From an uncultured Bacteroidales bacterium (GTDB taxonomy: Bacteria > Bacteroidota > Bacteroidia > Bacteroidales > B18-G4), in assembly GCA_963753835.1 (NCBI GenBank), contig CAVWDP010000002.1:99495-163494 (forward strand): a stretch of 64,000 nt of DNA, written 5' to 3'. The notes beneath the pieces were generated by a model. The model was not told the DNA's origin. It did no database searches and saw only the letters and a list, made by a program, of their open reading frames with translations. The number at the start of each line of letters is the position of its first letter. The stretch's first letter is position 1. Both the position numbers and the translations under genes were made by a program. Positions 27,267 through 51,483 of the stretch are shown piece after piece.

Positions 27267-27690
27267 CGGTAAAAAAGGGGCGCACGTTGTGCAGCCCCTT
27301 TTTTGATATGTGAAATCTGAACTCTGATATTTGAAGTTTGAAGTTTCTGCTCCGCCAGTTGAGTGCACCTGTCATCCTGCATCGCCCGCTGTAGCTTTAG
27401 CGAAAGCGGGAGAGTTGCGGAGCGAGCGTAGCAAGTGACGAGGGACCCCCATCAATTAAGCTCCAAGCCGTCAAAAGCCAAATTTCAATAAAACTCCAAA
27501 CTGTCAAGTTCCAAATTCATCCAACACTCAACACTCAACATCCAACACCTTTATGTATCAAGGCTTTCGGGAGCTGCAACTCTTCATTTAAAAAAATCGG
27601 TGATTTTGGGGGGAGTTGCAGCTTTTTTATGTACCGATCCCTCCCCTGTTTTTAGACCCCCAAACAATCGTTCCATTATTTGGTCCCCAA
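27267..27690 (+). repeat. Modular intergenic repeat, copy 1 (T-A-B-C-F plus extra hairpins)
   Basis: Terminator hairpin, then a GATAT/GAAGTTT tract, then CTGCTCCGCCAGTTGAGTGCACCT and GTCATCCTGCATCGCCCGCT..AGCGGG..GAGGGACCCCCATCA. An AAACTCCAAACTGTCAAG tract follows, then the GAGCTGCAACTC..GAGTTGCAGC hairpin. Confidence 0.85.
27271..27306 (+). terminator. Terminator hairpin after tRNA-Asn (T module of the repeat family)
   Basis: AAAAAA-GGGGCGCAC-GTT-GTGCAGCCCC-TTTTTTTT. Confidence 0.65.
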
Positions 27691-27710
27691 CCCATAGTTG
27701 ACTTCCCCTC

Positions 27711-27769
27711 CCACTTTTCGTATTTTTATAAAAATCAATAAACCGCGCCATAGCAGCGGCCGTTATCGG
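27711..27769 (+). repeat. Upstream module J (gene-oriented), copy in front of 27789 CDS
   Basis: CTTTTCGTATTTTTATAAAAATCAATAAACCGCGCCATAGCAGCGGCCGTTATCGG matches the reverse complement of the left part of 45151-45285. It ends 20 nt before the ATG. Confidence 0.65.
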
Positions 27770-27788
27770 TTAGTGCTAAAAATCTACT

Positions 27789-28769
27789 ATGAGAATTTTC
27801 TTTTTATTTCTATTCATCAATCTATACCTGGCTGCTTCTAGTCAGGTTATAAAGGGAACCATTTTTGAGAAGAAAACAAACAATATCATTTGCTTTGCAA
27901 CAATCTATTTTAATGGAACCTTTGTTGGTACTTTATCAGATCAAAATGGAAATTTCGAGTTGTATATCTCGAAAGAAAATAGATCAATGCCATTAACAGT
28001 AAGTTGTATAGGTTACTATTCTGTTACTCTTACTGATTTTTCTATTACTGAACCGTTGATAATTTATTTGGAACCCCAGTTATATGAATTAAAAGATGTT
28101 ATTATTAGTGGTAAATCTCTGGAAAGGAAGAGAAGAAGAAATTTAAGATTGTTTAGAAAAGAATTTATTGGCACTACTGCCAATGCGCATGGATGTAATA
28201 TATTGAATGAAAATGATATTACCTTCAACTATGATTCTGATGATGATACGGTGAAGGCATATGCGTTGAAACCAATTTTGATTGAGAATACGGCATTAGG
28301 ATACAAAATCACTTATTTCCTAGATAGATTTGAATATTATAAAAAAACTCAAGCTACTTTTTTTAGTGGGAATTTTATATTCATTAAGGATCTTAATGAT
28401 GATGAAGCACAGACTCAATTTTATAAAAGCAGAAGAGAACACACCTATTTAGGATCAAGAATGCACTTTTTCAGAGTACTTTGGTCTGGGCAGTTAGATT
28501 CTTCAGGATTTATAGTTAGAAGTCCATCGTATGACACTCTCAATCTTGACACAATCGTATTTCAAGATGATAAACAAAATAAATTTCTTGGATTCACCTC
28601 TAACATATTAATAGAATATAACAACAGTAAAAGCACTATTGAATTTGTTCAGGAGTTTGTTTATTTTGATGAATCGGGATTATTCAGTCCCGGGATTAAA
28701 TGGAGTGGTGAGATGGCTCGACAGCGAATTGCAGACTGGCTTCCATATGAATATTCAATCGAGCAGTAA
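27789..28769 (+). CDS. CarboxypepD_reg-like domain secreted protein
   Basis: 326 aa with a signal peptide. N-terminal VIKGTIFEKKTNNIICFATIYFNGTFVGTLSDQNGNFEL is typical of the carboxypeptidase-regulatory-like fold. Visibly AT-rich. Confidence 0.6.
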   Translation: MRIFFLFLFINLYLAASSQVIKGTIFEKKTNNIICFATIYFNGTFVGTLSDQNGNFELYISKENRSMPLTVSCIGYYSVTLTDFSITEPLIIYLEPQLYELKDVIISGKSLERKRRRNLRLFRKEFIGTTANAHGCNILNENDITFNYDSDDDTVKAYALKPILIENTALGYKITYFLDRFEYYKKTQATFFSGNFIFIKDLNDDEAQTQFYKSRREHTYLGSRMHFFRVLWSGQLDSSGFIVRSPSYDTLNLDTIVFQDDKQNKFLGFTSNILIEYNNSKSTIEFVQEFVYFDESGLFSPGIKWSGEMARQRIADWLPYEYSIEQ

Positions 28770-28973
28770 CAACCCAAACAATAAATAAAAACCATACGCC
28801 TCTTATTCAGACAGTTGTGCGTTTTTTTTAGAAATACCATTTTTTTCAGACCTTATGTAATATGTATTGAAAGTATTTTTATAAAGTTGAAGAACCTAGA
28901 CATAATAGAAGACAAAAGCAGTTATTGTATTAGATATAGTATTCCTCTGTTCTCTTATTATCTTTTAAGACCT

Positions 28974-29003
28974 GACCTCACAGGTTCAAGAACCTGTGAG
29001 GTC
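28974..29003. terminator. Perfect 11-bp hairpin (possible terminator)
   Basis: GACCTCACAGG-TTCAAGAA-CCTGTGAGGTC. The T-run is weak. It is followed by further GC hairpin modules up to 29190 (GCCATAGCTTCAGCG / CGCTAAAGCTATGGC inverted pair). Confidence 0.4.
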
Positions 29004-29192
29004 TCTTTGGCTGCAACTTCCGCCCCACCTTCGTCCCGAGTGCTCGGAACTCCGGCGGGTAAAAAAGAAACCACCTCCGCCAACCGCGTGTCGCCATAGC
29101 TTCAGCGGTGGCACAGGCTACGGCGGTTGTAAAGGGAGCAACAAAAAAGGGCCACCCCACCGTCGCTAAAGCTATGGCGGGCAAAGGCGAGT

Positions 29193-29495
29193 CCCTTTTT
29201 TGATACTCGATACTTGATACTTGATATTTGAAGTTTTCTGATCAGCCAGTTAAGTACTACCGGTCATCCTGCATCGCCCGCCGAAACCTTGGTGGAGGCG
29301 GGAGAGCAGCATCGCGAAGCGATGCAAAGGAAGGGACCTGTTGGCGGCTAGCACCTCCCTATCAAAAAGCACCCCTTCTATTAAACTCCAAACTGTCAAA
29401 CACCAAATTTCAAAAAAACTCCAAACTGTCAAATTGCAAATTCCAAACTAATCCAACACTATATTCCCCATCCATTATCCATAAATCATCATTCG
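29193..29495 (+). repeat. Modular intergenic repeat, copy 2 (A-B-C-E-F)
   Basis: CCCTTTTTT, then the GATACTCGATACTTGATACTTGATATTTGAAGTTT tract, then TCTGATCAGCCAGTTAAGTACTACCG and GTCATCCTGCATCGCCCGCCGAAACCTTGGTGGAGGCGGG. GCATCGCGAAGCGATGC, GGGACC, CTGTTGGCGG and the AAACTCC.. tract follow. Confidence 0.9.
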
Positions 29496-29616
29496 TAGTT
29501 TTTCTACGTTAGGCGGTAAAATCCCGTTGGTTTTAAAATCGATTGTTATTTAATTTTATACTGTTATAAATTGTTCCGGGTAAGCTTTTTGCTTTCGCAA
29601 GGATATAAAATTAAAT

Positions 29617-30948: not shown

Positions 30949-31035
30949 TATCAAATCTTTACACTTGCTCTGTCGCCACCATATTAATTTAGTTATTTAT
31001 TTCTGGTTTAAATATGACATAAGTATAGTGCGAGG

Positions 31036-31355
31036 CCCTTTTTTGATATCTGATACTCGATACTTGATACTTGATATTTGAAGTTTTCTGATCAGCCAGT
31101 TAAGTACTACCGGTCATCCTGCATCGCCCGCCGAAACCTTGGTGGAGGCGGGAGAGCCGCAGCGCGAAGCGATGCAAAGGAGGGAACTGTTGGCGGTTAG
31201 CACCTCCCTATCATAAAGCACCCCTTCACTAAACTCCAAACTGTCAAACTCCAAATTAATCCAACACTCACTTCGTCCGCCGAAGTTTTAACGAAGGCGG
31301 AACACCCAACACTTTCCCGCGAATGCGGGAAAAACGGTGGTTTATTTGGTCAAGG
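31036..31355 (+). repeat. Modular intergenic repeat, copy 3 (A-B-C-E-F-G)
   Basis: Near-identical to copy 2 through A-B-C-E. It then has hairpins TCCGCCGAAGTTTTAACGAAGGCGGA and TTCCCGCGAATGCGGGAA, followed by GGTGGTTTATTTGGTCA. Confidence 0.9.
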
Positions 31356-31501
31356 GGTGAAATCTTATTCAGTTTAACGTTTGGTGTAAGAAGAGTAGCC
31401 GAAAGCGGAAGTAAAAACTTTCAGTTTACTGCAAATTTTATGCGGGCTGCAATGTTCATATTTAATACAATCTCGGCTATTATTTTTATACTTTGTTGTG
31501 C

Positions 31502-32593: not shown

Positions 32594-33238
32594 AACTTGT
32601 TTATTGATTCACCTTTATTATCATTATATGTCTAAATTGGGGTTGTAATGGTAATGATATGTGCTATTATGTTTCAAAATCCTCTATTGGGGTTTTGACT
32701 TAATTAAACAGCTTATCAGTAAAGATAAAAAATATTGGTGCTGCAACTTCCACCAAAAAAGAGGAGCGGTAAAAAAGGGGCGCACGTTGTGCAGCCCCTT
32801 TTTTGATATCTGATATCTGATATTTGAAGTTTGAAGTTTCTGCTCCGCCAGTTGAGCGCACCTGTCATCCTGCATCGCCCGCTGTAGCTTTAGCGAAAGC
32901 GGGAGAGTTGCGGAGCGAGCGTAGCAAGTGACGAGGGACCCCCATCAGTTTTGCACCTCGCTATCATGCAGCACCTCTTCTATTAAACTCCAAACTGTCA
33001 AACACAAAATTTCAAAAAAATACCAAACTGTCAAACTCCAAATTCCAAATTAATCCATCACTATATTCCCCATCCATCATCCACTGTGTCCTCTGTAGCT
33101 ATCCGCGAGCGCAGAAGCTACTCAGCGGAGGCGCTAGCGAAAGAGGATAATTCATCATCCATAATTATTTCCGCGAATGCGGAAATCCCGCCCCGGTTGC
33201 CTGGGACCGGAATAAAATCGTTCCTTTATTTGGTCACG
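32594..33238 (+). repeat. Modular intergenic repeat, copy 4 (165-bp AT-rich leader, tRNA 3-prime-like fragment, T-A-B-C-E-F, extra multi-stem module, G)
   Basis: 32594-32870 and 32933-33062 are identical to 37751-38027 and 38048-38177. 32759-32935 is nearly identical to 27259-27455. Extra module TCCTCTGTAGCT..AGCTAC..AGAGGA at 33089-33147. Confidence 0.9.
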
Positions 33239-33371: not shown

Positions 33372-34459
33372 TTATACATTGTTAGGTGGAGTTTTTTCTT
33401 CGTCTTGTGTATTTAATCTGTCGATTATATTATATTTCGCCTGTCTTTTCTTCCACCTATCCCTTGCATATTTTTGCATGTCAACTATGGTATCGGTTTC
33501 ATCAATTATTTCAAGACCTAGCAAAGTTTCAATAATATCTTCCATTGTTACAATTCCGTCAAAACCACCATATTCATCTACAATTAATGCAATATGTTCT
33601 TTTTTTTCCAATAGTTTTTCCCACAAAGCAAAAAGTTCTATACTATATGGAACAATAACTATCTCTCGTTTAATATCTTTCAGTTTTAATTCATGTTGGT
33701 CTTCGGCTAGTTTTTCAAAAACTTCCTGCCTAAAAACATATCCTGTTATGTTTTCTTCATTTTCTGAATATATAGGAATACGTGAAAATTTTAGATAATC
33801 TTTATTCTTAAAAAAATCTTTTAAGGATAATTTCTCATCGGCAACAGCAACAACAACTCTTGGGGTCATAATTTCTGCTACTTTCACATTTTTGAGCCGA
33901 AGTAAATTTTGAATTATTTTATGTTCATTATTTGAAAAAACACCTTCATCTGCTCCTATATTTGCTAATGCTGCAATTTCCTCTCGGCTAGTAGTTTGCT
34001 CTTGTCTGTTTTTTGAATAAGTTTCGTAATGACTGCTGACATTACAACCAATGGATAGGTAATAATTATCATACCTTGTATAATTCGAGAAGAAATCATG
34101 GCTAGATTTCGCCAATATCTGGCTCCAATTGTTTTTGGAATAATTTCGGTAATTACTAGAATTAAAATTGTTAAAATAGCTGATATAATTCCAAAAGAAG
34201 CTTCACCAAATACTTTAACTGCTTGTGCTCCAACTCCAGCGGCACCAACTGTATGTGCTACGGTATTTAATGATAAAATTGCAGATAAAGGCTTGTCAAT
34301 ATTGGTTTTTAAATCAACAAATGATTTTGCCCAGGTATTTCCTTCTTCATGCTTAACAATCAAGAAGGATTGTGGTGTTGAAAGAAGCACGGCTTCCATT
34401 ATAGAACAAAGAAATGAAACAACAAGAGCAAGAAATAAATAGAATAAAAGTAATATCAT
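33372..34459 (-). pseudogene. CNNM/CorC-HlyC family protein (DUF21 TM domain plus CBS pair), frame break in a 6-nt homopolymer
   Basis: ORF 33965..34459 (DUF21-like TM helices) and ORF 33372..34115 (SREEIAAL...IMTPR, CBS pair, DEYGG..GIVTMEDIIE). The frames join at the T6 run at 34009-34014. The last about 8 codons and the stop lie in sequence shared with the rsgA 3-prime flank. Confidence 0.75.
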
Positions 34460-34661
34460 GTATTTTCTTTCAAAATTACGACAGTATGAATTAATTTAGG
34501 ATGATGTCTTCGTTAAAATACCACCTAGCGGTTCTAATATGGGGCGTTGGGCATTTTGAAACACCTACCTATCAAACCGCAATATGTTTTATTAAATGTT
34601 CTCATTTTCAATTTTGCCAATCCGCCCAATGACCTATATTTATTGTTATCAACAGAATGTG

Positions 34662-35816
34662 CTATTTCTGTTGATTTAACCAAATTTCATTAGAGTATTC
34701 ATTGGAACCACCATCAAAATTTGAAATAAAAACATCATTAATCCCATCATTATTAAGATCTTTAATTATAGGACGCTGAAAAAGATTTTTGCTTCCGATT
34801 ATAGAATCACTCTCTGTAAAATTCCCATTTCCATCATTATACCAGATTCTGTTTGCTTCGCCTAAACTTGTAATAAATAGATCTAATGAGCCATCACCAT
34901 TTAAATCTCCTATCCCAATTCTTCCAAAAATAGCAGGAGATAGTTTTTGTTCACTATAAGTAAATATCCCTTTTCCATTGTTTAATAATATTTTCGAGGG
35001 AGTACTAAAATTACGGGTGCCATTTGTTAATATGATATCCAAATCGTTATCATTATCTATATCTCCGGATACAAAAGAACCATAAATTATTGTAGTGTCT
35101 TTCATAGTCCAATATTTCATAAAGTTCCCCCCATCATTAATTAGAGATTCGAAACCACTTCCTACTTGTCTGGAGAATATATCCATATCCCCATCATTAT
35201 CCACATCAAGAAGCAGTGGATTTTTAGGAATTGTAACGTCACTTTTGGTGAATTCTCCATTTCCATTATTCAAATACAAAATATTTGCTGCCGAATTGTA
35301 TTCTATTATGGCGTCAATATCTCCATCGGAATCCATATCAGCTAATTGTATTGCATTACCACTAAACTTTTCATCGCCAAGGTTTTGCTTGCTATCATAA
35401 AACTGCCCCTTACCGTTGTTAAAATAAATTTTGCTAGGGATTTCATTATATTTTTCTTCATTTTCGCTTTTATAACCCGCACATACAATAAATATATCAG
35501 GACTGCCATCACCATTTAAGTCATCAATACCAACACCATGACCCTGTTGAGTGAGTTTTTGACCGGAATCTGTAAAGTTACCATTCCCATCATTGAACAA
35601 TATTTGACTATGATTATATCCCATATTGGCGCACACGGCATCTAAATCCCCATCCATATCCAAATCCTCAAGTCCAATTTGATAGGTGCTTTTCTTATGT
35701 GAATATTGGTTGTTTTTTTTGAGATTAACAATGGTCTTTTGGGCATAAATACTATTCAAACAACTGCATGCCATAATAGAATAAATCAATAGATTTTTAA
35801 GTGAATTTACTACCAT
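34662..35816 (-). CDS. FG-GAP/VCBS repeat (CRTAC1/ASPIC-like) secreted protein
   Basis: 384 aa with at least 7 repeats carrying DxDxDGDxD calcium-binding loops (DLDMDGDLDAV, DDLNGDGSPDIF, ADMDSDGDIDAI, GDLNGDGSLDLF...). AT-rich. Confidence 0.8.
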   Translation of the reverse strand: MVVNSLKNLLIYSIMACSCLNSIYAQKTIVNLKKNNQYSHKKSTYQIGLEDLDMDGDLDAVCANMGYNHSQILFNDGNGNFTDSGQKLTQQGHGVGIDDLNGDGSPDIFIVCAGYKSENEEKYNEIPSKIYFNNGKGQFYDSKQNLGDEKFSGNAIQLADMDSDGDIDAIIEYNSAANILYLNNGNGEFTKSDVTIPKNPLLLDVDNDGDMDIFSRQVGSGFESLINDGGNFMKYWTMKDTTIIYGSFVSGDIDNDNDLDIILTNGTRNFSTPSKILLNNGKGIFTYSEQKLSPAIFGRIGIGDLNGDGSLDLFITSLGEANRIWYNDGNGNFTESDSIIGSKNLFQRPIIKDLNNDGINDVFISNFDGGSNEYSNEIWLNQQK

Positions 35817-35838
35817 GTTTATTTCCTTTTATTTTGTT

Positions 35839-35858
35839 GATAACGGATGGGGCTATGA
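35839..35858 (-). promoter_or_regulatory. CATAGC-N6-CCGTTATC motif upstream of FG-GAP gene
   Basis: The minus strand reads TCATAGCCCCATCCGTTATCAAC, 22 nt upstream of the ATG at 35816. Related to GCCATAGCAGCGGCCGTTATCGG (27747) and GCCATAGCAGCGGCCGTTGGC (revcomp of 45151). Confidence 0.4.
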
Positions 35859-36134
35859 AGCGTCCCGAGTCCTCGGGATGCGATATTAGCCTGTGTTATG
35901 TTTAGTATTTATTCTAAATTCCCTTTTAATCAAACTTCATTTTATTTATTTCAAATAAATAGGTAGTCTGTAAATTTACTCACTTATTCTTTTTACTACA
36001 GACGAATTCAATGTATTTTTATGGTTTTATATCAATCTCCAGCTGATATAATGCCGTAAGAAGAATGACAGGAAGGCCCCGATTGATTTAGACTGTGATT
36101 CCTGAAATGCTTTTAAGTCAACAATAAATGGGTT

Positions 36135-37119
36135 TTACCTGATTACAAACTGTGAGGTCAGTACACCATCATCAGTGTAGAATACAACTGTGTACACACC
36201 ACTTTTCAAGTCAGATGTATTTATCGTTACGTTAAAGTTGCTTATCTCAATAGCTTCGACTAGTTTTCCGGTGACATCGATTATCTCAATCCTGTTAACA
36301 TCAGATAATTCATTTATATTCAACTTGTCCGCTTGCGGGGTTCGGATAAATAACATATTCAGCCCTTGTTTTGGATTCAAAAATACCGGGAATACAGTAC
36401 ACCCCAGACATCATTCACTGTCATCCATGTTGTATCAATAACAGTTATCATGCGATTTCCACTAACAAGTTCTTCACCATTGTCCCAGCTGGGTTCATTG
36501 TTAATAATACGGTAATATTTATATTCATAATCACCTTGATATAAATACAGACCGTGGGTATAAATATAGTCATCGACTTCACCAAATGGAGCCATCTTGT
36601 ATTGGGGGATAGTACCTGGCATAGCCCAATTATTGGCCAGGCTTCCTGCAATATATAGAAATTCTATCGCCGGATTGAAACCCTCCACTTCCATCAAATC
36701 AATCCAAAAATATACTGCTACAGGTTTATCACTCCAGTAATCACTATAAATTGATTTCTTCCGTAAGGATGATGTCTACGGTTGGGGTCACCCTCCCATT
36801 CATCATTATCCCAACTTGCTTCGCCGTTGATAACACGAAAATATTTATACAAGATCTCCCCAGAATCCACTTCCACGCGTAAGTTCATAAACATTTAGGT
36901 CCAATCCGAGTATTAATTTATAGGTCGGATCATCGCCGGGTTTCTCCCAATCAGTAAATGTACCAGAGATATATACTTCATCTGTTGTCGGATTAAATTC
37001 TTCGGATTCACTCATGTCGACTTTAAAAGTGACTGTAAAATTAGTTTGTCCAAATGCAACAGATCCCAGTAAGCAAAACAGACAAAAGTGTAAAAATAGT
37101 TAACGTAGTATGTTTTCAT
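36135..37119 (-). pseudogene. Degraded T9SS cargo gene (tandem carbohydrate-binding-like domains plus CTD), multiple frame breaks/stops
   Basis: ATG at 37119 gives an N-terminal hydrophobic stretch. Fragments 36377..36697 (YEYKYYRIINNEPSWDNGE) and 36135..36380 (CTD ...LKSGVYTVVFYTDDGVLTSQFVIR) are in different frames. 36700-37100 has a second copy of the domain broken by stops. Confidence 0.65.
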
Positions 37120-37384
37120 AATGCATAGTTTTTACTCCATAAAGATAATCAAGAAAAATGCAAAATGTACCATAGTAAGTAATCAAATAATGAGACTATT
37201 TCGAACTATCCCATTAAACAGGGTTGTCAGGTAAATTCTTTTATTGAAATACGTTATGATTTGTGGTAACTTTTTAAACCAATCACAACAGTTTTTATGA
37301 TTGGAATATCTTACTGAATATCTATAAACTATTCTCCAGCCTGTGAATACATCCCAATTCTATTATGTAAATAGGCATATTAAA

Positions 37385-37531
37385 CATAACGTTTGGCGGC
37401 TATGCAGCGTGCGGCCATTTTCGGCCGCATTGCTAAAATTACGAAAATATCTGGCGCATGCGGTATGAGGAGCTGTTATGGAAGCGTAGGACCGCCTGCG
37501 GGCCATGCGCCAAGGTATTGGCGCAGAATTT
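37385..37531 (-). repeat. Upstream module J, copy (about 265 nt upstream of the degraded gene start at 37119)
   Basis: Shares AAAATTACGAAAATATCT, GTTATGGAAGCGTAGGACCGCC and GCGCCAAGGTATTGGCGCAGAATTT with 45151-45285. The left end CATAACGTTTGGCGGCTATGC carries the CATAGC..GTTAT motif. Confidence 0.7.
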
Positions 37532-37750
37532 GACCTCTCGCCCCCATGGGCGAAATGCCTCTCCGCAGACTTGAAATTGGCACAACATTTCGCCCTAAAT
37601 TCTGTGCCAATACCGGGTAGGATCAGCTTTGGGATTATTGGCTTGCACGATGGCACGATTGTGCGATATTCGATTTCCGAAGGAATCAAAAACCTGCTAC
37701 AATTATTTGCAAAGGAAGATTTGGAATGTTAGGGTGGGGCTATGTTCTAT

Positions 37751-38275
37751 AACTTGTTTATTGATTCACCTTTATTATCATTATATGTCTAAATTGGGGT
37801 TGTAATGGTAATGATATGTGCTATTATGTTTCAAAATCCTCTATTGGGGTTTTGACTTAATTAAACAGCTTATCAGTAAAGATAAAAAATATTGGTGCTG
37901 CAACTTCCACCAAAAAAGAGGAGCGGTAAAAAAGGGGCGCACGTTGTGCAGCCCCTTTTTTGATATCTGATATCTGATATTTGAAGTTTGAAGTTTCTGC
38001 TCCGCCAGTTGAGCGCACCTGTCATCCCGAACCCCGAGTACTCGGGGGAGGGACCCCCATCAGTTTTGCACCTCGCTATCATGCAGCACCTCTTCTATTA
38101 AACTCCAAACTGTCAAACACAAAATTTCAAAAAAATACCAAACTGTCAAACTCCAAATTCCAAATTAATCCATCACTCACTTCGTCCGCCGAAGTTTTAA
38201 CGAAGGCGGAACACCCAACACCTTTTTCCGCTATGGCGGGGAAAACCGGTGGTTTATTCGGTAAGGGCTGGGGGC
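37751..38275 (+). repeat. Modular intergenic repeat, copy 5 (leader, tRNA 3-prime-like fragment, T-A-B-short C-E-F-G)
   Basis: Perfect duplicate of copy 4, except that the 62-nt C insert is replaced by the 20-nt CGAACCCCGAGTACTCGGGG and the sequence diverges after TAATCCATCACT. Confidence 0.9.
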
Positions 38276-38355
38276 TTTATTCTGTTTAATGGTTTTGTGG
38301 ATACCAGATATAATTGGCTTTACGTATTGTTTGGTGCAGTTTATTTTCTTTCAAA

Positions 38356-39134: not shown

Positions 39135-39440
39135 TTATTAGTAAAGATATAAAATTTCTATTCTGCAACTTCCACCCCCAAAGGGGCTGCACAAGGTGCG
39201 CCCCTTTTTTGATATTTGAAATCTGATCCTTCGACTTCGCTCAGGACAGGTTATCTGATATTTGAAGTTTGAAGTTTCTGTTCCGCCAGTTAATTGCACT
39301 TGTCATCCCGATCCTGAGTACTCGGGAGAGGGACCTGCTGGCGTTTGCACCTCCCCATTAAAAAGCACCATTTCCCCGTCCCTTGCCCCTCGTACCCCGC
39401 ACCCCATCCATCATCCATAATTCATAATCCATAATTATTT
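39135..39440 (+). repeat. Modular intergenic repeat, copy 6 (T hairpin inverted, A with CCTTCGACTTCGCTCAGGACAGG insert, B, short C, E)
   Basis: CTGCAACTTCCACC is followed by GGGGCTGCACAAGGTGCGCCCC, which is the reverse complement of the copy 1 hairpin. Then TTTTTTGATATTTG..., GTCATCCCGATCCTGAGTACTCGGGAGAGGGACC and CTGCTGGCGTTTGCACCTCC. Confidence 0.85.
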
Positions 39441-40432: not shown

Positions 40433-40676
40433 GTCCTTTTTGAAATCTGAAATCTGATATTTGAAATTTGATATTTGAAGTTTTCTGCTCCGCTGGTTAA
40501 GATCTACCGGTCATCTTGCCTCGCCCGCCGAAACCTTGGTGAAGGCGGGAGAGCCGTAGAGCTTTTCCACCTTCGCTAACGCCTCCGCTGAGTAGCTTCA
40601 GCGCTCGCGGAAAGCTACGGTGGATGATAGATGCGGAGGAAGGACCTCCTGGCGATTCGCAGAGCATCAGTTTAAT
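40433..40676 (+). repeat. Modular intergenic repeat, copy 7 (A-B-C, inverted multi-stem module, E)
   Basis: GAAATCTGAAATCTGATATTTG..., CTGCTCCGCTGGTTAAGATCTACCG and GTCATCTTGCCTCGCCCGCCGAAACC. 40566-40624 is the reverse complement of the module at 33089-33147 (about 52/59 by eye). Confidence 0.85.
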
Positions 40677-42348: not shown

Positions 42349-42655
42349 TTTTTTTTGATATCTGATATTTGATATCTGATATTTGAAGTCAGAAGTTTTC
42401 TGATCCGCCAGTTAAGTACTACCGGTCATCCTGCATCGCCCGCCGAAACCTTGGTGGAGGCGGGAGAGCAGCAGCGCGAAGCGATGCAAAGGAGGGACCC
42501 CCATCAATTAAACTCCAAACTGTCAAACACCAAATTTCAAACAAATACCATACTGTCAAATTGAAAATTCCAAATTAATCCAACACCCAACACTCAACAC
42601 TTTTTCCGCATTCGCGGAAAAACCGCCCTGGCGATTTGCACCCAAGCATCAAAGT
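42349..42655 (+). repeat. Modular intergenic repeat, copy 8 (A-B-C-F-G with inverted small hairpin)
   Basis: Fills the whole gap between the PIG-L stop and the radical SAM start. The hairpin TTCCGCATTCGCGGAA (42604-42619) is the inverted form of TTCCCGCGAATGCGGGAA. Confidence 0.9.
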
Positions 42656-43698: not shown

Positions 43699-44012
43699 TT
43701 TTTTGAAATATGAAATCTGAAATCCGATATTTGAAGTTTGAAGTTTTTCTGCTTCGCCAGTTAAGCACTACCGGTCATCCTGCTTCGCACGCCGAAGCTT
43801 TTTATCCTTTGCCAAGGCTCGGATGATGAAAAGCGAAGGTGGGAGAAAAGTTGAGGGTGTGACGAGGGATCTCCTGGCACTGTGCACCTCACTTCCAAAA
43901 GCACTAAATCCTAATTCCTAAATCCGAAACAAATCTCAAATCCCCAATTAACTCAACACTCAATACTAAACACTCATCCCGCGAATGCGGGAAAACAAGT
44001 GGTTATTTGTTG
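43699..44012 (+). repeat. Modular intergenic repeat, copy 9 (A-B-variant C-E-F-G)
   Basis: GAAATATGAAATCTGAAATCCGATATTTGAAGTTTGAAGTTT, CTGCTTCGCCAGTTAAGCACTACCG, GTCATCCTGCTTCGCACGCC..GAGGGATC, CTCCTGGCACTGTGCACCTC and CATCCCGCGAATGCGGGAA. Confidence 0.85.
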
Positions 44013-45467: not shown

Positions 45468-45589
45468 GCCGCCAGCTTTGTTTATCATGCAGTGTTACTT
45501 CTACCGGTCATCCTGCATCGCCCGCCGAAACCTTGGTGGAGGCGGGAGAGCAGCAGCGCGAAGCGATGCAAAGGAAGTACCCCCATCAT
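45468..45589 (+). repeat. Modular intergenic repeat, copy 10 (partial: B-like, C)
   Basis: GCCGCCAG...CTACCG-GTCATCCTGCATCGCCCGCCGAAACCTTGGTGGAGGCGGGAGAGCAGCAGCGCGAAGCGATGCAAAGGAAGTACCCCCATCA. The terminal CATCA overlaps the NUDIX stop codon. Confidence 0.85.
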
Positions 45590-46185: not shown

Positions 46186-46197
46186 AATACTTGTTGG

Positions 46198-47289
46198 TTA
46201 AACAGCCATACTCCTTCTGATTGGAGGATGAGGGTCATAATCTTCTACAATAAAGTCATCAATAGTTAGCTGATCAAAAGGTTTTTTTGCAATTTGTAAT
46301 TTAGGTAAAGGCCTGGGTTCTCTTGATAATTGTTCAAGAATTGCGGTTACATGATCATATTTTTCTTCATTGCCGTCACCGGGAGCATTTTTATTAATCC
46401 ATTCAACTACTTCTAAATATCCTTCTCTTGCAGAAACATTCCGTATTCTTTTTTGTAAATTCTTGAAATTATCTCCGTGCCATTGGGTTCTCTTTCCAAT
46501 ACCGGCATAAAAATGCGAATCACCGAAGGTGTGGATAAATGTTTTCGGGACCATCCCTGCTTCTTGAGCAATTATCTGGGTAAGAGCAGCATAACTGGCT
46601 ATATTAAAAGGAACACCTAAAAACTGATCACAACTTCTCTGGTAAAGTTGTAATTCTAATTCGCCTTGTTCATTAGCAGTGGCTTGATAAAGAACATGAC
46701 AAGGCGGTAAGGACATGTTAGGGGTGTCTCCGGGATTCCATGAATCAACAATGTGTTTTTTTCCAGTAGGTTTCTTTTTTAAACCATTTATTAGTTTCTC
46801 TAGTTGATCAATTTCAACAAAGCTCCCTTTGTCGTGATCAAAATATTCCCATCTTCTCCATTGTTTCCCATAAATCGGACCAGCATCGCCCCATCTTTCT
46901 GCAAAATCAGGATCTTCTTTTATTCTCTGACCATATTCTTTCATTGCTTTGTCCCAATCAGGTGAATACTTTACAAGACTTTCAGGAAAAAGTCCTTCTT
47001 TTTGCATTCCGGAAAGATTGCCCTGAAAAGCATCAGGCCTCCAGATAGGGCAGTTATAGTCTTCAAGGTATTTAATATTTGTATCTCCCCTTAAGAACCA
47101 TATTGTTTCATGAAACATAGATTTTGTAGCCATCTTTTTAGTAGTCAATAATGGATACCCTTCTCTAAGATCATATTCGTTTTGATACCCGAATAAAGAG
47201 ATAATCCCCGAACCTTTGCTTCCTCCTTTAAAATTTGAACGATCAGAAGTTAAAATTGCTTTTGAATGATCTAAATATTGTTGCGCCAT
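46198..47289 (-). CDS. Thymidylate synthase (ThyA) family protein, long divergent form
   Basis: 363 aa with LPPCH catalytic Cys, LYQRSCDQFLGVPFNIASYA and LSREPRPLPKL. It has an L. casei-type insert after IW and a second insert of roughly 45-50 aa between HFY and LSREP. The positions of E. coli R21, R126 and R127 are not Arg (by eye). Confidence 0.75.
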   Translation of the reverse strand: MAQQYLDHSKAILTSDRSNFKGGSKGSGIISLFGYQNEYDLREGYPLLTTKKMATKSMFHETIWFLRGDTNIKYLEDYNCPIWRPDAFQGNLSGMQKEGLFPESLVKYSPDWDKAMKEYGQRIKEDPDFAERWGDAGPIYGKQWRRWEYFDHDKGSFVEIDQLEKLINGLKKKPTGKKHIVDSWNPGDTPNMSLPPCHVLYQATANEQGELELQLYQRSCDQFLGVPFNIASYAALTQIIAQEAGMVPKTFIHTFGDSHFYAGIGKRTQWHGDNFKNLQKRIRNVSAREGYLEVVEWINKNAPGDGNEEKYDHVTAILEQLSREPRPLPKLQIAKKPFDQLTIDDFIVEDYDPHPPIRRSMAV

Positions 47290-47510: not shown

Positions 47511-47545
47511 AAAAAAGCCACCACCTCCGGTGATGGCTTTTTACA
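47511..47545 (-). terminator. Intrinsic terminator after the degraded T9SS gene
   Basis: AAAAAAAGCCACCACCTCCGGTGATGGCTTTTT: 8/9-bp stem GCCACCACC/GGTGATGGC with A-run and T-run, 16 nt below the stop at 47561. Confidence 0.6.
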
Positions 47546-47560
47546 TAATATATCAAGTGA

Positions 47561-49636
47561 TTATTTTACTATCATTTTTTTTGAAACGCGTTCGTTTGCA
47601 ATAGTAACCGTGTAGAGATATACACCTGCTTCAAGATTGCTTACGTCAATGTTAACGCTCATGTTTCCGTTAATGATACCGGCATCTATTGTGCAAACAG
47701 TTTGTCCGATAATATTTGAAATCTTCAACAGTAACCGAAGCAACAGTTTCACTGCTAATCTCGATGGTTGTGATTAGCTGTAGCCGGATTTGGCAGGTTT
47801 TGAGAAACACTGATGTTTGATGGTCCTGAAAATTCATCTACACCAACAGGAATTGGTACAATTGCATCGAATGTTATACCAGTCTACATATTGAACATGA
47901 ATAGCATCCGCAGAGGCAACTAGTGTTAGTATAAAAATCATCAATATTAACAGCATTCACCATAGGAACAGTAAAAGTTTCATCATCAGCATTATAATAG
48001 GCATATTCAGCTGCCTGGATATACCAGTAATATTCAAAAGGAAATGTTGTACCGCAAGTAAAGCAAACAGCATCTGTATGTTCGCCAGTAGTTAAATTAT
48101 AAGACCAACCCTTTAAATCAGGCTTATAATTCTCCACTAACACGATCTCCTTCCGGTGAATCGGTCCATGTTACAAAGAATTCTTCTGAGCGTTCATCTT
48201 TAGTAAGTTGCAGTCTGTGCAGCCAGCCATCTGTGCCACAATACAATGAGTCATTTGGTTCCACTAGTAAGGGATTGAGCGGCATTTGACATCAATGAAT
48301 CAACCAACATAATATCAATTAATTCATCTCCAATGGTGAATTTAAACAGATACTACCAGCGCGATTATATCTGGAACCAATATTTTCGTTGTTAAATTCA
48401 TAATTATCCCAGTCATTAAGAAAGTCATGATAGTGGCTTGTCACATCACCAAATAATTGCAAATTCCCATCAGCATCAACTGCACCTGCAGTAGCATTGA
48501 ACCATGGAATAGCAAAATCTGTGAATTCTTCACATAGTATCTCTGACAGGGGAAAATTAACCAATCTGTGGGCTCTTCTGCGCCATGTTTAAAAGAACTT
48601 CCTGCCAATCATCATCCTAGGAAGTCAAGTTCAAGTTATCCCAATTACCTCCGCCATCAGTGGTTTTAAAAACAATTGGTTGGTAACCGGTTTCCGCATT
48701 TTCATAGTTGCACCAGCCATCCATGCATATCCAATCATGCCATCATCTGACCAAACAATACCTGCTGCCTACATCAGAAAAGGTCCATTTACCAGCCCAC
48801 ACGGCATCATCACCAGATTAAGATCAAAAGGCATATCGTATAGACAGAATCTTCCAGTAACCCAGTCAAATCCGGTACCATTGTAATTTCCTGTGATATC
48901 TTCCAATTTAAATTGATGTAAAAGCAGCCCAGTCCTCCTGCAGTCATAAGTATTAAAGCACTTTATGATATCTTCTTTTTGGGTTAATCCAAAGTGATTG
49001 TAATATCCATCATATATCATGCGTGTTTTCAAAATATTCGGTAAAATAATTAGCACCACCAAAGGTACTTGCATCCGAACGCCTGGTTGTCCCAATCTGC
49101 CAGGTGCCTAGGATTATCAGGAGCAACACCCTGGTACACACCATAAGCATTTGCTACAACGGCATTGCCGCTTGGGTTATAAATAATACCTGTTAAGTAA
49201 TAATTACGCAATTCTCAGCGCTTAAATCTGAAAGAAGTACAGGTCCGGTCCATGTCAGGCCATGATCCTCGGAATAGAAGATTCCAACAGATCCGTCACT
49301 TAAAGCAATACCTGGATAAGTTTCTTCATCCAGGATAAAAGACATAGCTTATCAAATCCAGATCTTTATTATAAGATAATAACTCTATATCCTTCACGAC
49401 GAAAAGATCTTTGGCTATGCGCTATTCCAACAGGAACTTTCACAATGTCACCTGCCACTTGCTTTATAATCATTAGTATAATTGGAGGCATTGTTCTGCA
49501 TGGTGGAATTGGCTCTTTGATATTCACTTTCAAGAACTTTCAATTGAGCATCCACTTGAACTCTTGCAGTAGCATTTTGGGCATGTGCACCCATAATAAA
49601 GAATGCTGCCACTAATAATAGTAATAGTTTTTTCAT
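47561..49636 (-). pseudogene. Heavily degraded gene for a large secreted T9SS cargo protein (at least 4 frame changes)
   Basis: The signal peptide ORF 49448..49636 (MKKLLLLLVAAFFIMGAHAQ), fragments 48769..49095, 48319..48564 and 47874..48143, and the CTD fragment 47561..47752 (LEAGVYLYTVTIANERVSKKMIVK) fall in different frames with gaps between them. Confidence 0.7.
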
Positions 49637-49796
49637 GTGTTTAATTTTAAGTAGTTAGAATGATATCAAAGATAGGAAATTTCTATCCAATTAAACGTCA
49701 GGCAAATTGATACACCTTGAAATTCATGATGGAGGACTTCAAAATGCTTAAAAATTTAAATTACCAAAAGTTGTTATTAAGATCAACGATTGCCAA

Positions 49797-50042
49797 CCCA
49801 CTTTTTGATATTTGATATTTGATATCTGATACCTGATATTTGAAGTTTTTCTGCTTCGCCAGTAAAGCACTACCGGTCATCCTGCATCGCCCGCTGAAGC
49901 TTTAGCGTAGGCGGGAGAGTCGCGGAGCTTTTCCACCTTCGCTAATGCTACAGTGGATGATTGAAGCGGTGGAAGGACCTCCTGGCTGTGTGCCACTCGC
50001 TATTATAGAGCACCAAACAATAAAGCCCCAAGTTCCAAACAG
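49797..50042 (+). repeat. Modular intergenic repeat, copy 12 (A-B-C-short multi-stem-E)
   Basis: CTTTTTGATATTTGATATTTGATATCTGATACCTGATATTTGAAGTTT, CTGCTTCGCCAGTAAAGCACTACCG, GTCATCCTGCATCGCCCGCTGAAGCTTTAGCGTAGGCGGG, TTCCACCTTCGCTAATGCTACAGTGGA, GAAGGACC and CTCCTGGCTGTGTGCCACTCGC. Confidence 0.85.
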
Positions 50043-50243
50043 AAAATTCTGCATGCTCAATTAAAATTTTTAGTAGTTTTGCAAACGGCTGATCTTGAGG
50101 GAAGCGCCCAGTCAGCCAAACCTAAACCTACCTACCCTTAATTCCAAGTGAATTTAATTTTAGATTTGGAAACCAGATCTATTATTGTATAATTATATCT
50201 GGTAAAGAATCAGACAAGACCGGATTAATAAATATTCAAAACA

Positions 50244-51383
50244 ATGAAAAACATTACACTTAGCATCCTGATCGTTCTGACCCAAACACTTCTTTTTGCG
50301 CAATGCCCACCAGGAGATCTGATCATCTTTTCATCGCAGGCCCAGATCAATGAGTTTCAAACCTATTACCCCAATTGTACTGAGTTAGATGCAGATGTGG
50401 TAATCAGTGGTGGCAGCATTGTTAATTTATATGGATTGAATAAGATCACGTCTATCACAGGCAATCTTAGCTTCCTTTACAACCAGACACTTTATAACTT
50501 GCAGGGATTGGAAAGCCTGACTTCGGTCGGGGGCAACCTGGTATTTCTGGAGAACTATGTCATGTTAAACCTAACAGGACTTCAAAGTGTTTCCTCCGTA
50601 GGAGGGGATCTTGTCATCAGCACGAATAATTTGCTGAACAGCCTTAATGGGCTGAATAACCTGACCACAATAGGAGGTGATTTCTATGTAGGCTATAATG
50701 CCAAGGTGGATAATTTTACAGGATTTGATAACCTGGTCTCTGTAGGAAATAGTCTTCAAGTTGAACATTGTTCAGTCCTGTCCAGCCTGATGGGGCTTGA
50801 AAGTCTTGTTTCTGTAGGGGGCTCTCTTTTAATTGAATATAACGATACTCTGGCCTCACTGACGGCTCTGGAAGCCTTAACTTCTATCGGGGGAGACCTT
50901 TCCATCAGAAGCAATTATGCCCTGAATAGCCTGTCCGGATTGGATAATATTGATGCGGCTTCAATCAACAACTTATCCTTTTATTCCAACACCTCATTGA
51001 GCAGCTGTGAAGTCATTAGCGTATGCACTTATCTGGCTGATCCCAATGGCGGTATCACCATTCTTAATAATGCCACAGGTTGTAAAAACAAAGCGGAGGT
51101 TGAAGCGGCTTGCGAGCTGGTATCCGTATATGAGCAGAAACAGAGAAACAGCTTATCCATCTACCCAAATCCTGCATATTCCATCATTACAATTGATCTG
51201 GCAAACACGCCATCTCAAAATGCTTTTCTGACAATTTCAAACACCAGTGGGCAGCAGCTCATTACACAAATTGTATCGGATTCCAAGACCCAAATCGACA
51301 TCAGTCGATTGCCAAAAGGCATTTATATTGTCAAAATGCAGCTTGGAAAAGACCTGCTTAATAGGAAGCTGGTTGTGAATTAA
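50244..51383 (+). CDS. Leucine-rich-repeat (receptor L-domain/BspA-like) protein with T9SS C-terminal sorting domain
   Basis: 379 aa with a signal peptide. About 10 repeats LxxLxSIGGxLxIxxNxxLxSLxGL. CTD SIYPNPAYSIITI...LPKGIYIVKM...KLVVN. Confidence 0.75.
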   Translation: MKNITLSILIVLTQTLLFAQCPPGDLIIFSSQAQINEFQTYYPNCTELDADVVISGGSIVNLYGLNKITSITGNLSFLYNQTLYNLQGLESLTSVGGNLVFLENYVMLNLTGLQSVSSVGGDLVISTNNLLNSLNGLNNLTTIGGDFYVGYNAKVDNFTGFDNLVSVGNSLQVEHCSVLSSLMGLESLVSVGGSLLIEYNDTLASLTALEALTSIGGDLSIRSNYALNSLSGLDNIDAASINNLSFYSNTSLSSCEVISVCTYLADPNGGITILNNATGCKNKAEVEAACELVSVYEQKQRNSLSIYPNPAYSIITIDLANTPSQNAFLTISNTSGQQLITQIVSDSKTQIDISRLPKGIYIVKMQLGKDLLNRKLVVN

Positions 51384-51395
51384 GAGAACAGCATT

Positions 51396-51483
51396 AAAGG
51401 GGCGTACCTAGTGCAGCCCCTTCTTGATATTTGATATCTGATATTTGAAGTTTGAAGCTTCTGCTCCGCCAGTGAAGTACTAA
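51396..51483 (+). repeat. Modular intergenic repeat, copy 13 (T-A-B only; ends at the stop of the next gene)
   Basis: AAAGGGGCGTACCTAGTGCAGCCCCTTCTTGATATTTGATATCTGATATTTGAAGTTTGAAGCTTCTGCTCCGCCAGTGAAGTACTAA. It may also act as the terminator for 50244..51383. Confidence 0.85.

Follow-up and report, generated by a model that had tools for sequence, protein, structure and literature searches.

Directly downstream of a tRNA-Asn gene, in the genome of an uncultured Bacteroidales bacterium, lies an array of 24 kb in which foreign-looking genes alternate with non-coding modules that all point in the same direction. The array has a defined modular anatomy, is anchored at the tRNA and turns over in gene content among relatives. 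Within the DNA examined, a 64-kb window of this genome, the interval 27.2-51.5 kb looks like a gene-capture hotspot; related loci are labelled L001, L002 and so on. Our reading, offered tentatively and at somewhat less than even odds, is that this is a tRNA-Asn-anchored island built through direct-repeat recombination at a tRNA-derived core, with the modules also supplying terminators and promoters. We infer the recombination mechanism, because no recombinase is present.

Anatomy of the array

The 13 co-oriented repeat copies that the first-pass annotation had described after tRNA-Asn were recovered, with their coordinates, by repeat and pattern searches. An nhmmer profile built on the A-end/B/GTCATCC segment and run on the window matched the A-B-C core at 12 sites, with E-values of 1e-11 to 1e-20 (27314, 29204, 31054, 32807, 37964, 39249, 40451, 42366, 43715, 47431, 49816 and 51428); copy 10, which has a variant B and was detected by BLAST only, makes 13. 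Every one is on the + strand, in the interval 27.3-51.5 kb, and the described absence of the B-C core from 1-27 kb and 51.5-64 kb is borne out by zero nhmmer matches in either part. The number of core patterns expected by chance is 0.00 (100 shuffles). Taken alone, the shared direction of all 13 copies has p ~2e-4, and it is repeated in each other locus with more than one copy; this evidence on orientation and clustering is on the scale of the locus (the 64-kb window and related loci), and a replication-linked orientation is possible. The impression of a copy in almost every gap holds for 13 of 17 gaps, but four, within 34.4-37.4 kb and at 46186-46197, are empty. Within the window the core is confined to the array, but other heptamer-tract and hairpin repeats are also present outside it.

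Array features, in order:
27193-27267, +, tRNA-Asn (GTT): array anchor (ARAGORN; Rfam, 72 bits); its last ~13 nt and trailer recur in the array
27268-27745, +, copy 1: T (A-run, hairpin 27277-27298, T-run; bidirectional terminator-like), heptamer tract A, B-C core, F tract; at the right end a GCTGCAACTC..GAGTTGCAGC hairpin, then a TTTCGTATTTTTA module that resembles a + strand promoter and precedes the + strand gene at 27789; these right-hand modules are also present in L002, L004 and L006
28975-29495, +, copy 2: hairpin H, 11-mer CTGCAACTTCC (29011-29021), nested GC hairpins invading the T hairpin, then A, B, C, E, F
31027-31500, +, copy 3: half T hairpin, A, B, C, E, F and full G (GGTGGTTTATTTGGTCAAGG..GTTTAACG); the conserved trailer adjoins the rsgA stop codon
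32594-33383, +, copy 4: leader and promoter 32594-32740 (read on the - strand), 11-mer 32741-32751, tRNA-derived core 32755-32776, T hairpin 32777-32798, then A, B, C, F, G
33372-37689, -, lowest-GC gene block: CNNM/CBS, FG-GAP, T9SS fragment, orf108
37751-38290, +, copy 5: leader, 11-mer (37898-37908), core, T, A and B identical to copy 4, a short C hairpin that differs from it, then F, G
39135-39440, +, copy 6: leader fragment, 11-mer 39163-39173, flipped T hairpin 39183-39204, A with a GATCCTTCGACTTCGCTCAGGACAGG unit inserted, then B, C, E
40433-40676, +, copy 7: T-run remnant, A, B, C with an extra nested hairpin, E; on the - strand, TATATTTG, a consensus Bacteroidetes -7 box, precedes RluA to the left of this copy
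42349-42655, +, copy 8: T-run, A, B, C, F, partial G
43699-44012, +, copy 9: A-run and T-run without hairpin, A, B, C (interrupted by an insertion), E, F, partial G; in L009 the orthologous site upstream of PIG-L has a decayed copy
45468-45589, +, copy 10: variant B and C, ending at the orf199 stop codon
47396-47488, +, copy 11: just A and B
49797-50042, +, copy 12: T remnant, A, B, C with a nested hairpin, E
51396-51483, +, copy 13: degenerate core, T hairpin 51398-51419, A, B; it stops at the stop codon of a conserved 774-aa gene, the distal end of the array

The module order T-A-B-C-(E)-F-(G) agrees with the sequence as first read, but the set is not shared by every copy: E, F or G may be lacking, and copies 10, 11 and 13 are cut short. 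Two components had been overlooked, namely a promoter/leader module left of T in copies 2, 4, 5 and 6 and, in full copies, the invariant 11-mer CTGCAACTTCC and, after it, a copy of the tRNA-Asn end (the last ~13 nt) together with the A-rich trailer and terminator hairpin of that gene. Read along the + strand, a full module begins with a promoter and 5' leader that point leftwards into the adjacent - strand gene and end in the 11-mer. Then comes a ~25-nt core, CAAGAAG(A/G)GGAGCGG(C/T)AAAAAAGGG, a copy of the tRNA-Asn end and trailer, and an A-run/hairpin/T-run predicted to be a bidirectional terminator. A 7-nt repeat tract leads to a nested, REP-like hairpin between the invariant flanks GGTCATCC...GGA(A/G)GGACC, and an optional second heptamer tract with small hairpins reaches the stop codon of the right-hand gene. 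The 11-mer, core or full T is kept only in copies 1, 2, 4, 5, 6 and 13 of the 13, and the same 11-mer and core are fused to at least three unrelated terminator types.

Anchoring at tRNA-Asn and turnover of genes

The repeat family is also found, clustered and co-oriented, in related uncultured Bacteroidales assemblies. Wherever a tRNA-Asn gene is present the array starts there, at its 3' end in the window and at the orthologous genes of L002 and L009, and it comes after a tRNA-Asn pseudogene in L016 and L017. Together the 11-mer and tRNA-like core occur ~20 times at 8 loci, co-oriented throughout, and no core copies were found in more than 100 kb of sequence flanking the arrays in the window and its relatives. 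In L004, 44 of the 46 positions of the core and terminator are the same as in the tRNA end, trailer and hairpin of the window, and a window-specific T in GGAGCGGTAAAAAA is common to the tRNA trailer and copies 4 and 5. The lowest-GC block, of 5.1 kb, lies between these two copies, which share direct repeats 277 nt and 130 nt long at 100% identity. The near-identical strains L016 and L017 share ~99% identity over more than 300 nt up to ...GGAGCGGCAAAAAAGGG and are unrelated beyond, parting company exactly after the tRNA-derived core.

The genes between the copies are mostly of foreign composition. GC3 is 0.25-0.37 for most array genes, which are interleaved with host-like ones, compared with 0.38-0.55 for flank genes, and the same contrast is seen in L009, L002, L006 and L001; blocks between cores are of mixed composition. 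Gene content varies among close relatives. RluA and PIG-L are ~30 nt apart in L009, and in the window copy 7, an rSAM gene and copy 8 lie between them. The rSAM gene of L004 is 96% identical to that of the window, but its neighbours and flanks differ. The flanking modules have not travelled with the gene, and the L009 gap that lacks rSAM has no element either; a simple one-site Campbell insertion therefore fails for rSAM. No transposase, integrase, RT or cas gene is present among the domain-tested ORFs, in keeping with the first reading, and the 64-kb window and ~180 kb of related loci hold no integrase, transposase or other recombinase save for one unrelated IS (rve) in L018.

Why do all copies share the orientation of the tRNA? 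According to the island reading that we prefer, AT-rich genes or small gene blocks would have been acquired horizontally, with co-oriented composite modules between them, and the array would have grown and been reshuffled by recombination of direct repeats at or beside the tRNA-derived core. Circular gene blocks may have been inserted and excised in Campbell fashion; this would take either a site-specific recombinase encoded at an unlinked locus or homologous recombination over 100-300 bp of shared sequence. The breakpoint between L016 and L017, the unrelated terminator types joined to one core and the identical repeats around the lowest-GC block all speak for recombination at the core. With a Campbell-type mechanism all copies would automatically share the tRNA orientation; direct-repeat recombination anchored at this core, given a putative enzyme, can account for the co-orientation, which the first reading could assign to no element class that it could name. 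The modules would insulate and express the captured genes, providing the terminator of the upstream gene and the promoter/leader of the next. Several points weigh against this reading: the tRNA-like 13-mer could be the fossil of one founding duplication, a copy in L017 lies on the opposite side of the tRNA, fewer than half of the 13 copies retain the 11-mer, core or full T, and the blocks between cores are mixed in composition.

The earlier impression of a cassette array stands with respect to foreign composition, content that varies between relatives and the start at tRNA-Asn, but an attC-type array does not. That the repeats are attC sites of an integron-type array or CALIN is highly improbable: intI is absent, the repeats are 250-650 bp long, compared with 57-141 bp for attC, and cassettes here have their own promoters and terminators. 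Co-oriented repeats do lie between unrelated, mostly co-directional single genes, and B on the gene strand often matches RYYYAAC, but copies 11, 12 and 13, one L006 copy (position 384) and both L009 copies do not match, and the GTTRRRY partner is absent at attC distance. We give equally little credence to chimeric assembly joins at the repeats. Short-read contigs of relatives end at the tRNA-Asn 3' end or within elements (L010, L011, L019), so repeats do confuse assemblers; the window, however, lies in a 1.47-Mb contig with repeats of at most 650 bp, the copies differ in detail among themselves, and the same architecture appears in independent assemblies of different projects (L002, L006, L009, L016, L017).

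The suggestion of a non-autonomous element family was fair in so far as the repeat is modular, non-coding and BIME-like in its mosaicism, with REP-like nested hairpins and invariant flanks, optional modules and heptamer tracts. The MITE version of it fails because terminal inverted repeats are absent. An unlikely variant is that an HUH enzyme (RAYT or IS200/IS605-type) encoded at an unlinked locus mobilised REP/BIME-like repeats in the form of single-stranded DNA hairpins. Co-orientation would then reflect insertion into one replication strand, and IS200/IS605 insertions show replication-linked strand bias, but a second hairpin family in the window has copies in either direction. Local hopping would account for the clustering; yet the >100 kb of neighbouring sequence without copies is unlike a dispersed family, and the exact core pattern is confined to one stretch per representative genome. 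The tRNA fragment would be a passenger. The co-oriented copies on both sides of the tRNA in L017 fit the HUH reading, but it explains neither why the genes between copies are foreign in composition nor why strains diverge at the tRNA-derived core. The B-C core, a nested hairpin with asymmetric invariant flanks and variable interior, is of the expected kind, as are the lack of target duplications and terminal inverted repeats, the start of every copy directly after a T-run, and the small GC hairpins inside loops of other hairpins, even the anticodon and T loops of tRNA-Asn in L016 and L017. No HUH gene was seen, however.

Local structure and expression signals

The compensated change noticed in the first C hairpin, CCCGCC/GGCGGG to CCCGCT/AGCGGG, is confirmed; copy 12 carries a G.T intermediate, and the L006 hairpin (TTCGCC/GGCGAA) adds two more compensated pairs. 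The T hairpins preserve their shape over at least six different stem sequences, each flanked by an A-run and a T-run. Compensated changes are found only in these two local hairpins. The closing stem is invariant across copies, the A and F heptamer tracts are not complementary in L006 and whole-element folding z-scores are just -0.3 to -3.6, which argues against the proposal of one large structured RNA. An Rfam search gave no family match for the element, and identity as any Rfam family was rejected.

Starts on the - strand are preceded, at a distance of 40-200 nt, by promoter-like boxes (TTG..TATCTTTAC or TATATTTG), and the leader at 32594-32760 is identical to 37751-37917 and 84% identical to the region upstream of KatG in L001. 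The boxes and the preserved T hairpins fit the role in expression that the island reading gives to the modules. An alternative that we consider rather improbable is a non-mobile, cis-acting expression cassette (structured 3' UTR, terminator and promoter/leader) homogenised by gene conversion among neighbouring gaps. Its orientation would follow the mostly - strand genes. Ten of the 13 copies are indeed at the 3' end of a - strand gene, and along the - strand the gene is followed by hairpins, a single-stranded heptamer tract, the terminator, the promoter and then the next gene; but copies 1, 2 and 12 stay + despite + strand genes alongside, as do those in L001, L002 and L003, and there is no inverted copy beside any + strand gene. 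G-U pairs in the A/F heptamer tracts of the window favour the - strand, yet the tracts have no complementarity in L006. The compensated hairpins fit, but structure of the element as a whole is weak. Homogenisation would be consistent with the greater similarity of copies within than between genomes, and portable promoter regions before unrelated genes are documented (PMC3488235). The tRNA anchor and the restriction to AT-rich islands are left unexplained.

Comparison with known systems

Integrative elements are known to accrete in tandem at tRNA/tmRNA genes, for example in Klebsiella Asn-tDNA islands (PMC4891358) and Dehalococcoides ssrA islands (PMC3146451). As in those islands, a tRNA gene anchors the array by its 3' end, which recurs in the direct repeats between blocks, and the cargo is foreign in composition and strain-variable. 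The array differs in having no integrase in any block or nearby, in its mostly single-gene blocks of 1-2 kb, in keeping the tRNA-derived core in only about half of the copies, and in its 250-650 bp composite repeat (terminator, heptamer tract, REP-like hairpin, promoter), compared with a bare 15-60 bp att core. CIMEs in streptococci are a further example of such accretion.

Mosaic intergenic repeats include BIME of Escherichia coli, NIME of Neisseria and BOX of pneumococcus, which are dispersed genome-wide and not uniform in orientation. The array repeats are likewise modular and non-coding, with optional and reiterated sub-units and GC-rich palindromic units, are restricted to intergenic gaps and, by general analogy, may be partly transcribed. 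Unlike them, the array family forms clusters anchored at a tRNA, strictly in one orientation, is associated with foreign genes and includes promoters and terminators among its modules.

Integron cassette arrays may also occur with no integrase linked to them, as CALINs (PMC4889954). There too co-oriented structured repeats punctuate unrelated, mostly co-directional genes, but the repeats described here lack attC anatomy, are 3-5 times as long, are anchored at a tRNA gene rather than attI/intI, and give each unit its own promoter and terminator.

Heptamer tandem repeats are known as cyanobacterial STRR and as TAACTGA repeats in Beggiatoaceae, Cyanobacteria and a few Bacteroidetes (PMC4679880). 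Those of the array are similar as intergenic tracts of 2 to ~8 tandem 7-nt units that vary in sequence between genomes, often with other heptamers mixed in. They are, however, fixed sub-modules after the terminator T-run and again after the hairpin core, not free-standing arrays beside start codons. In IS26 translocatable units and pseudo-compound arrays, a circle with one repeat copy recombines with a resident copy. Directly oriented repeats alternate with cargo genes there as well, but IS26 encodes its own transposase, whereas the array repeats are non-coding.

Finally, putative mobile promoters are near-identical promoter/leader regions before unrelated genes (PMC3488235), and the leader shared by copies 4 and 5 and, at 84%, by KatG in L001 resembles them, except that the promoter in the array forms part of a larger co-oriented repeat linked with a tRNA-derived core. 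The nearest analogues of this arrangement are tRNA-linked island accretion and mosaic repeats of the BIME/NIME type.

Repeat copies and the genes between them

The repeat families read by eye from 27.2 to 51.5 kb, directly downstream of tRNA-Asn, are recovered by direct-repeat detection and pattern searches, with a chance expectation near zero. A nhmmer profile built from the last heptamers, module B and the GTCATCC of 20 copies finds 12 sites in the window, all of them on the + strand between 27314 and 51482, so that the rest of the window is indeed free of the B-C core, as the first-pass annotation had it. Copy 10, which has a variant B, is detected by BLAST only, and a search with a 94-aa ORF that spans copy 2 finds no further copies. 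Reading of the gaps bears out the module order, namely the T-run, heptamer tract A, B, hairpin core C (closed by GGTCATCC...GGA(A/G)GGACC), an optional E, a second heptamer tract F and the optional small hairpins G. The repeats are 250-650 bp long, with copies 10, 11 and 13 cut short at gene ends. The suggestion of one copy per gap is correct for 13 of the 17 gaps in this stretch; the remaining gaps are without a copy.

The heptamer tracts, GATATCT/GATATTT/GAAGTTT in A and AAACTCC/AAACTGT in F, are tandem intergenic 7-nt units, as in STRRs, and STRR-like heptamers are abundant in the genome at large. Tandem short-unit tracts are found in ordinary gaps of the window also (GATGTTG/GATTATG, TGCTAAA, (GGCAGTA)n and CACTCAA-type units, at 3236-3416, 9548-9648, 10009-10101 and 10867-11112). 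Outside the array there is a second repeat family, at 20034-20190 and 23480-23660, in which GCACCTCAC and a CCCCCTC..GAGGGGG hairpin accompany an AAATTCT/AAACTCT heptamer tract; the hairpin parts of the two copies point in opposite directions. A long palindrome, GTCATTTCGA..AGAAATCTGT...ACAGATTTCT..TCGAAATGAC, likewise has two intergenic copies, at 4440-4560 and 59125-59205.

The genes between the copies are unrelated (CarboxypepD_reg-like, Fib_succ/T9SS, RsgA, CNNM-CBS, FG-GAP, TspO, RluA, B12-radical SAM, PIG-L, T9SS proteins and a long ThyA), and 10 of the 13 are on the - strand. Their composition is foreign: most have a GC3 of 0.25-0.37, with a few host-like genes interleaved, whereas the flank genes have 0.38-0.55. 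Core-to-core blocks were rejected as uniform cassettes, GC3 being mixed within them. Single frameshifts in rsgA, CNNM and RluA may be (long-)read errors, since they are present also in the flank genes for BBE, the sigma factor and BNR. The T9SS-tail gene at ~47560-49640 on the - strand is truly degraded, with more than 10 frame breaks, and a match to the T9SS sorting domain survives at its C-terminus; the idea of a recombinase hidden in this 47.5-49.6 kb region was accordingly dropped. The earlier statement that integrase, transposase, RT and Cas domains are absent holds for the window ORFs tested. The thymidylate synthase (46198-47289; GC3 0.25) has 363 aa for a Pfam profile of 266 positions, implying an insertion of ~100 aa, and the ORF that comes next, where DHFR might be expected, encodes 199 aa and is without a Pfam match.

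The tRNA-derived core and its adjoining terminator and promoter

Left of T in copies 2, 4, 5 and 6 is an invariant 11-mer, CTGCAACTTCC, which the first-pass annotation missed. In copies 4 and 5 this is followed by AAAAAAGAGGAGCGGTAAAAAA and then by the hairpin GGGGCGCACGTTGTGCAGCCCC, which together reproduce the final ~13 nt of tRNA-Asn, its trailer and its terminator. The resulting core motif reads ...GGAGCGG(C/T)AAAAAAGGG.

tRNA-Asn and the tRNA-derived core repeats in the window
27193-27267, + strand: tRNA-Asn
27268: start of the array
32755-32776: tRNA-derived core repeat
37912-37933: tRNA-derived core repeat
51384-51397: tRNA-derived core repeat, degenerate

There are about 20 occurrences of the 11-mer/core motif over eight loci, co-oriented throughout. 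In L004, a related Bacteroidales locus, 44 of 46 positions of the motif agree with the tRNA end, trailer and hairpin of the window. Terminators of at least three unrelated types are attached to this one 11-mer/core. Copies 4 and 5 also flank the 5.1-kb block of lowest GC with 100%-identical direct repeats, 277 nt and 130 nt long.

Module T is predicted to behave as a bidirectional intrinsic terminator. It has at least six different stem sequences with the A-run/hairpin/T-run shape kept, and its stems show compensated changes (TTCGC/GCGAG to TTCAC/GTGAG and GGTA/TACC to GACA/TGTC). On the other side of the 11-mer the - strand reads TTG, ~16 nt and then TATCTTTAC, or elsewhere the consensus box TATATTTG in its place, and so looks like a Bacteroidetes promoter; a scan with sigma-70 and terminator consensus is uninformative for this phylum. 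Next comes a conserved leader, whose terminal ATAAACAAGTTGT lies some 25-60 nt ahead of the - strand gene's start codon. The rsgA and orf108 genes have 100%-identical promoter/leaders upstream of them (32594-32760 and 37751-37917), and that of an unrelated KatG gene in another genome (L001, 7189-7354) is 84% identical to the window version. The limits of the apparently portable promoter and 5' leader are GCACAACTTGTTTAT towards the gene and GTGCTGCAACTTCC towards the core, with CAACTT in both ends.

Might the copies then be cis-acting expression cassettes and nothing else, kept alike by gene conversion? The location of 10 of the 13 copies at the 3' ends of - strand genes would suit this explanation; the copies beside + strand genes nevertheless retain their orientation, and we think it unlikely.

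Related loci and breakpoints at the core

The repeat family is rare. The exact core pattern occurs in two species-representative genomes and six metagenome contigs, all from uncultured Bacteroidales, and BLAST and pattern scans of viral, phage and plasmid records gave no match, so that an origin from such elements was rejected. Orthologous loci were fetched through the conserved DUF4412 gene that adjoins tRNA-Asn. In two of them, L009 (75% amino acid identity) and L002 (54-61%), tRNA-Asn is followed directly by T-A-..., AT-rich genes and more co-oriented copies, and GC3 is 0.24-0.38 on the array side versus 0.42-0.54 on the other. L016 and L017 (72%) are similarly arranged, with tRNA-Asn a pseudogene. 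L006 carries six promoter/core motifs in 12 kb, with all nine genes on the - strand and a GC3 of 0.20-0.32. Every locus with more than one copy shows co-orientation, and the non-array flanks, which total more than 100 kb across the window and L009-L019, contain no core copies; the family is clustered, not dispersed. Three short-read contigs (L010, L011 and L019) end in the 3' half of tRNA-Asn or inside an element, as would be expected if that sequence is repeated in those genomes. That the array is an artefact of assembly is highly improbable.

The tRNA-Asn pseudogene (L016 8745-8890 and L017 ~120-265, in two independent assemblies) has lost its anticodon loop and 3' stem to a 15-nt GC hairpin, TCCGCCTTAGGCGGA, and its T-loop carries a GC-rich insert of 20 nt; it is no longer called as a gene by ARAGORN.

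The gene sets downstream of tRNA-Asn differ among the window, L002, L009 and L016. RluA and PIG-L are ~30 nt apart in L009, and in the window have copy 7, the rSAM gene and copy 8 between them. The rSAM gene of L004 is 96% identical to that of the window, with homology that stops 33 nt upstream of the start and ~10 nt past the stop, and its neighbours are unlike the window's; the neighbour of RluA in L003 differs also. L009 has a decayed copy upstream of PIG-L, in the orthologous position, with B still in its ancestral form, and its two tRNA-proximal copies have a common derived B, implying that some copies are old and positionally stable and that the proximal ones are young or homogenised. 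A further breakpoint is that between L016 and L017, which agree at ~99% over more than 300 nt, as far as ...GGAGCGGCAAAAAAGGG, and have nothing in common beyond it.

Two further arrangements were seen. In L018, a 59% relative, the terminator-core-promoter module is inverted beside DUF4412 (2100-3060); tRNA-Asn is missing there, and next to the module is an IS that encodes an rve transposase. This suggests an inversion with its breakpoint in the palindromic terminator. In L017 a B-C-E-F-G copy (1332-1692) is joined to the final ~30 codons of a gene for a BBE-type oxidase. The copy is on the far side of DUF4412 from the tRNA and is still co-oriented; at the corresponding place the window has a BBE gene of intact length and L009 has none.

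Our preferred reading, held with rather less than even confidence, is that the array is a tRNA-Asn-anchored island which grew, and is rearranged, as its direct repeats recombine with one another at the tRNA-derived core or next to it. The exchange could be site-specific or homologous, and its enzyme is only postulated. Such recombination would account for the anchoring at the tRNA, for co-orientation with the tRNA regardless of gene direction, for the repeated tRNA 3' end and the strain-level breakpoint between L016 and L017, for identical direct repeats on both sides of a foreign block, and for the foreign gene composition and its turnover between relatives. Insertion at a tRNA 3' end with direct repeats, atypical composition and variable content are all as in known tRNA islands; an island-encoded integrase is found neither in the window nor in any related locus. 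Four features weigh against an island of this kind: only about half of the copies keep the core, composition is mixed in the blocks that separate cores, the rSAM case is unlike simple one-site insertion, and one L017 copy is on the other side of the tRNA.

Local hairpins and comparison with known systems

The first-pass annotation offered a structured RNA as one possible identity. Whole elements fold only slightly better than their shuffles (z -0.3 to -3.6, weak on both strands), and with A/F pairing unconserved and nothing in Rfam, one large structured RNA is not supported. In the window the A/F heptamer stem relies on G-U pairs on the - strand, and it was rejected as a conserved structure on the GATTGTC and CACCTAA tracts of L006, which are incapable of pairing. 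B/E pairing (GCCAG/CTGGC) is frequent, with one-sided changes only. The closing stem of C is invariant and hence uninformative on structure; its asymmetry is conserved at the sequence level. The compensated change first noticed in the first inner C hairpin extends to at least three compensated pairs, with a 6-bp stem, 3x3 loop, 2 bp and tetraloop kept through different sequences. Retention of this shape shows that the local hairpins are under selection, whether as DNA or as RNA. Among Rfam families, including group II intron domains and OMEGA/IS605 RNAs, only tRNA passes the gathering thresholds, and at E<=1 there are two further matches, at chance level.

Small GC hairpins of one shape family (e.g. 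CCACCTTCGC..GCTACGGTGG) are nested in the loops of terminator hairpins at 29143-29201 in the window, at 2800-2885 in L004 and at 7110-7180 in L016, which suggests insertion into hairpin loops. An HUH/RAYT-type single-stranded DNA element, its orientation biased by replication, would be expected to give such nested hairpins, invading even tRNA loops as in L016 and L017, and an element boundary right after the T-run. The clustering of the copies and their island context speak against it; a RAYT (Y1 HUH) gene was not found within the 64-kb window, and we regard this origin as improbable. Neither of the element families proposed earlier describes the repeats fully. A MITE does not fit, there being no terminal inverted repeats and no duplicated flanks at copy boundaries; the heptamer tracts give low-complexity matches only, of ~70% complementarity, and none in L006. 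In REP and BIME sequences the palindromic units are of 20-40 bp, are scattered over the genome in many copies and often alternate in orientation. The analogy with these is good for the nested GC hairpins of conserved shape, which here are embedded, however, in a larger module that is co-oriented and clustered. Class C group II introns insert after terminators and have ribozyme domains V/VI and an RT ORF; the left boundary of the repeat after a hairpin and T-run is the sole likeness, and they were rejected for want of an Rfam intron match and an RT domain.

Integrons are defined by an intI tyrosine recombinase adjoining the array, and CALINs by at least two attC sites, in which R''(RYYYAAC)-L''...L'-R'(GTTRRRY) form imperfect inverted repeats. 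On the gene strand many copies have an RYYYAAC-like word in B, which is absent from copies 11-13, from one L006 copy and from both L009 copies. The repeats are 250-650 bp long compared with 57-141 bp for attC, no GTTRRRY partner lies at attC distance, and the ORFs tested across the window contain no Phage_integrase or other recombinase domain; lacking both intI and attC anatomy, an integron or CALIN is hardly credible. A looser, integron-like platform for gene capture in Bacteroidota, with the tRNA-Asn 3' end as primary attachment site and self-contained expression modules, seems to us doubtful, and decidedly so. Each captured gene would bring a 300-600 bp module with the core (CTGCAACTTCC plus the tRNA-derived 25-mer), terminator and promoter, and an unlinked putative recombinase would act, possibly, on the conserved bulged hairpin beside the core.

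If the direct repeats are recombination substrates, the array would represent a compact, integrase-less stacking of single foreign genes at a tRNA gene, each insulated by a terminator and supplied with a promoter, and would stand functionally between genomic-island accretion and integrons. To our knowledge chromosomal integrons are hardly known in the phylum Bacteroidota. The array could then help to explain how accessory genes are acquired by uncultured Bacteroidales of soil and sediment, and could provide a portable promoter/terminator module for their engineering. On the dullest reading it is a new lineage-specific mosaic repeat family, which breaks short-read assemblies at tRNA-Asn and whose small hairpins can invade tRNA loops.

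In function, the closest known counterpart is the tandem accretion of islands at tRNA and tmRNA genes (PMC4891358, PMC3146451), and in appearance the BIME/NIME mosaic repeats, with heptamer tracts that are STRR-like (PMC4679880) and a promoter/leader that resembles a portable promoter (PMC3488235).
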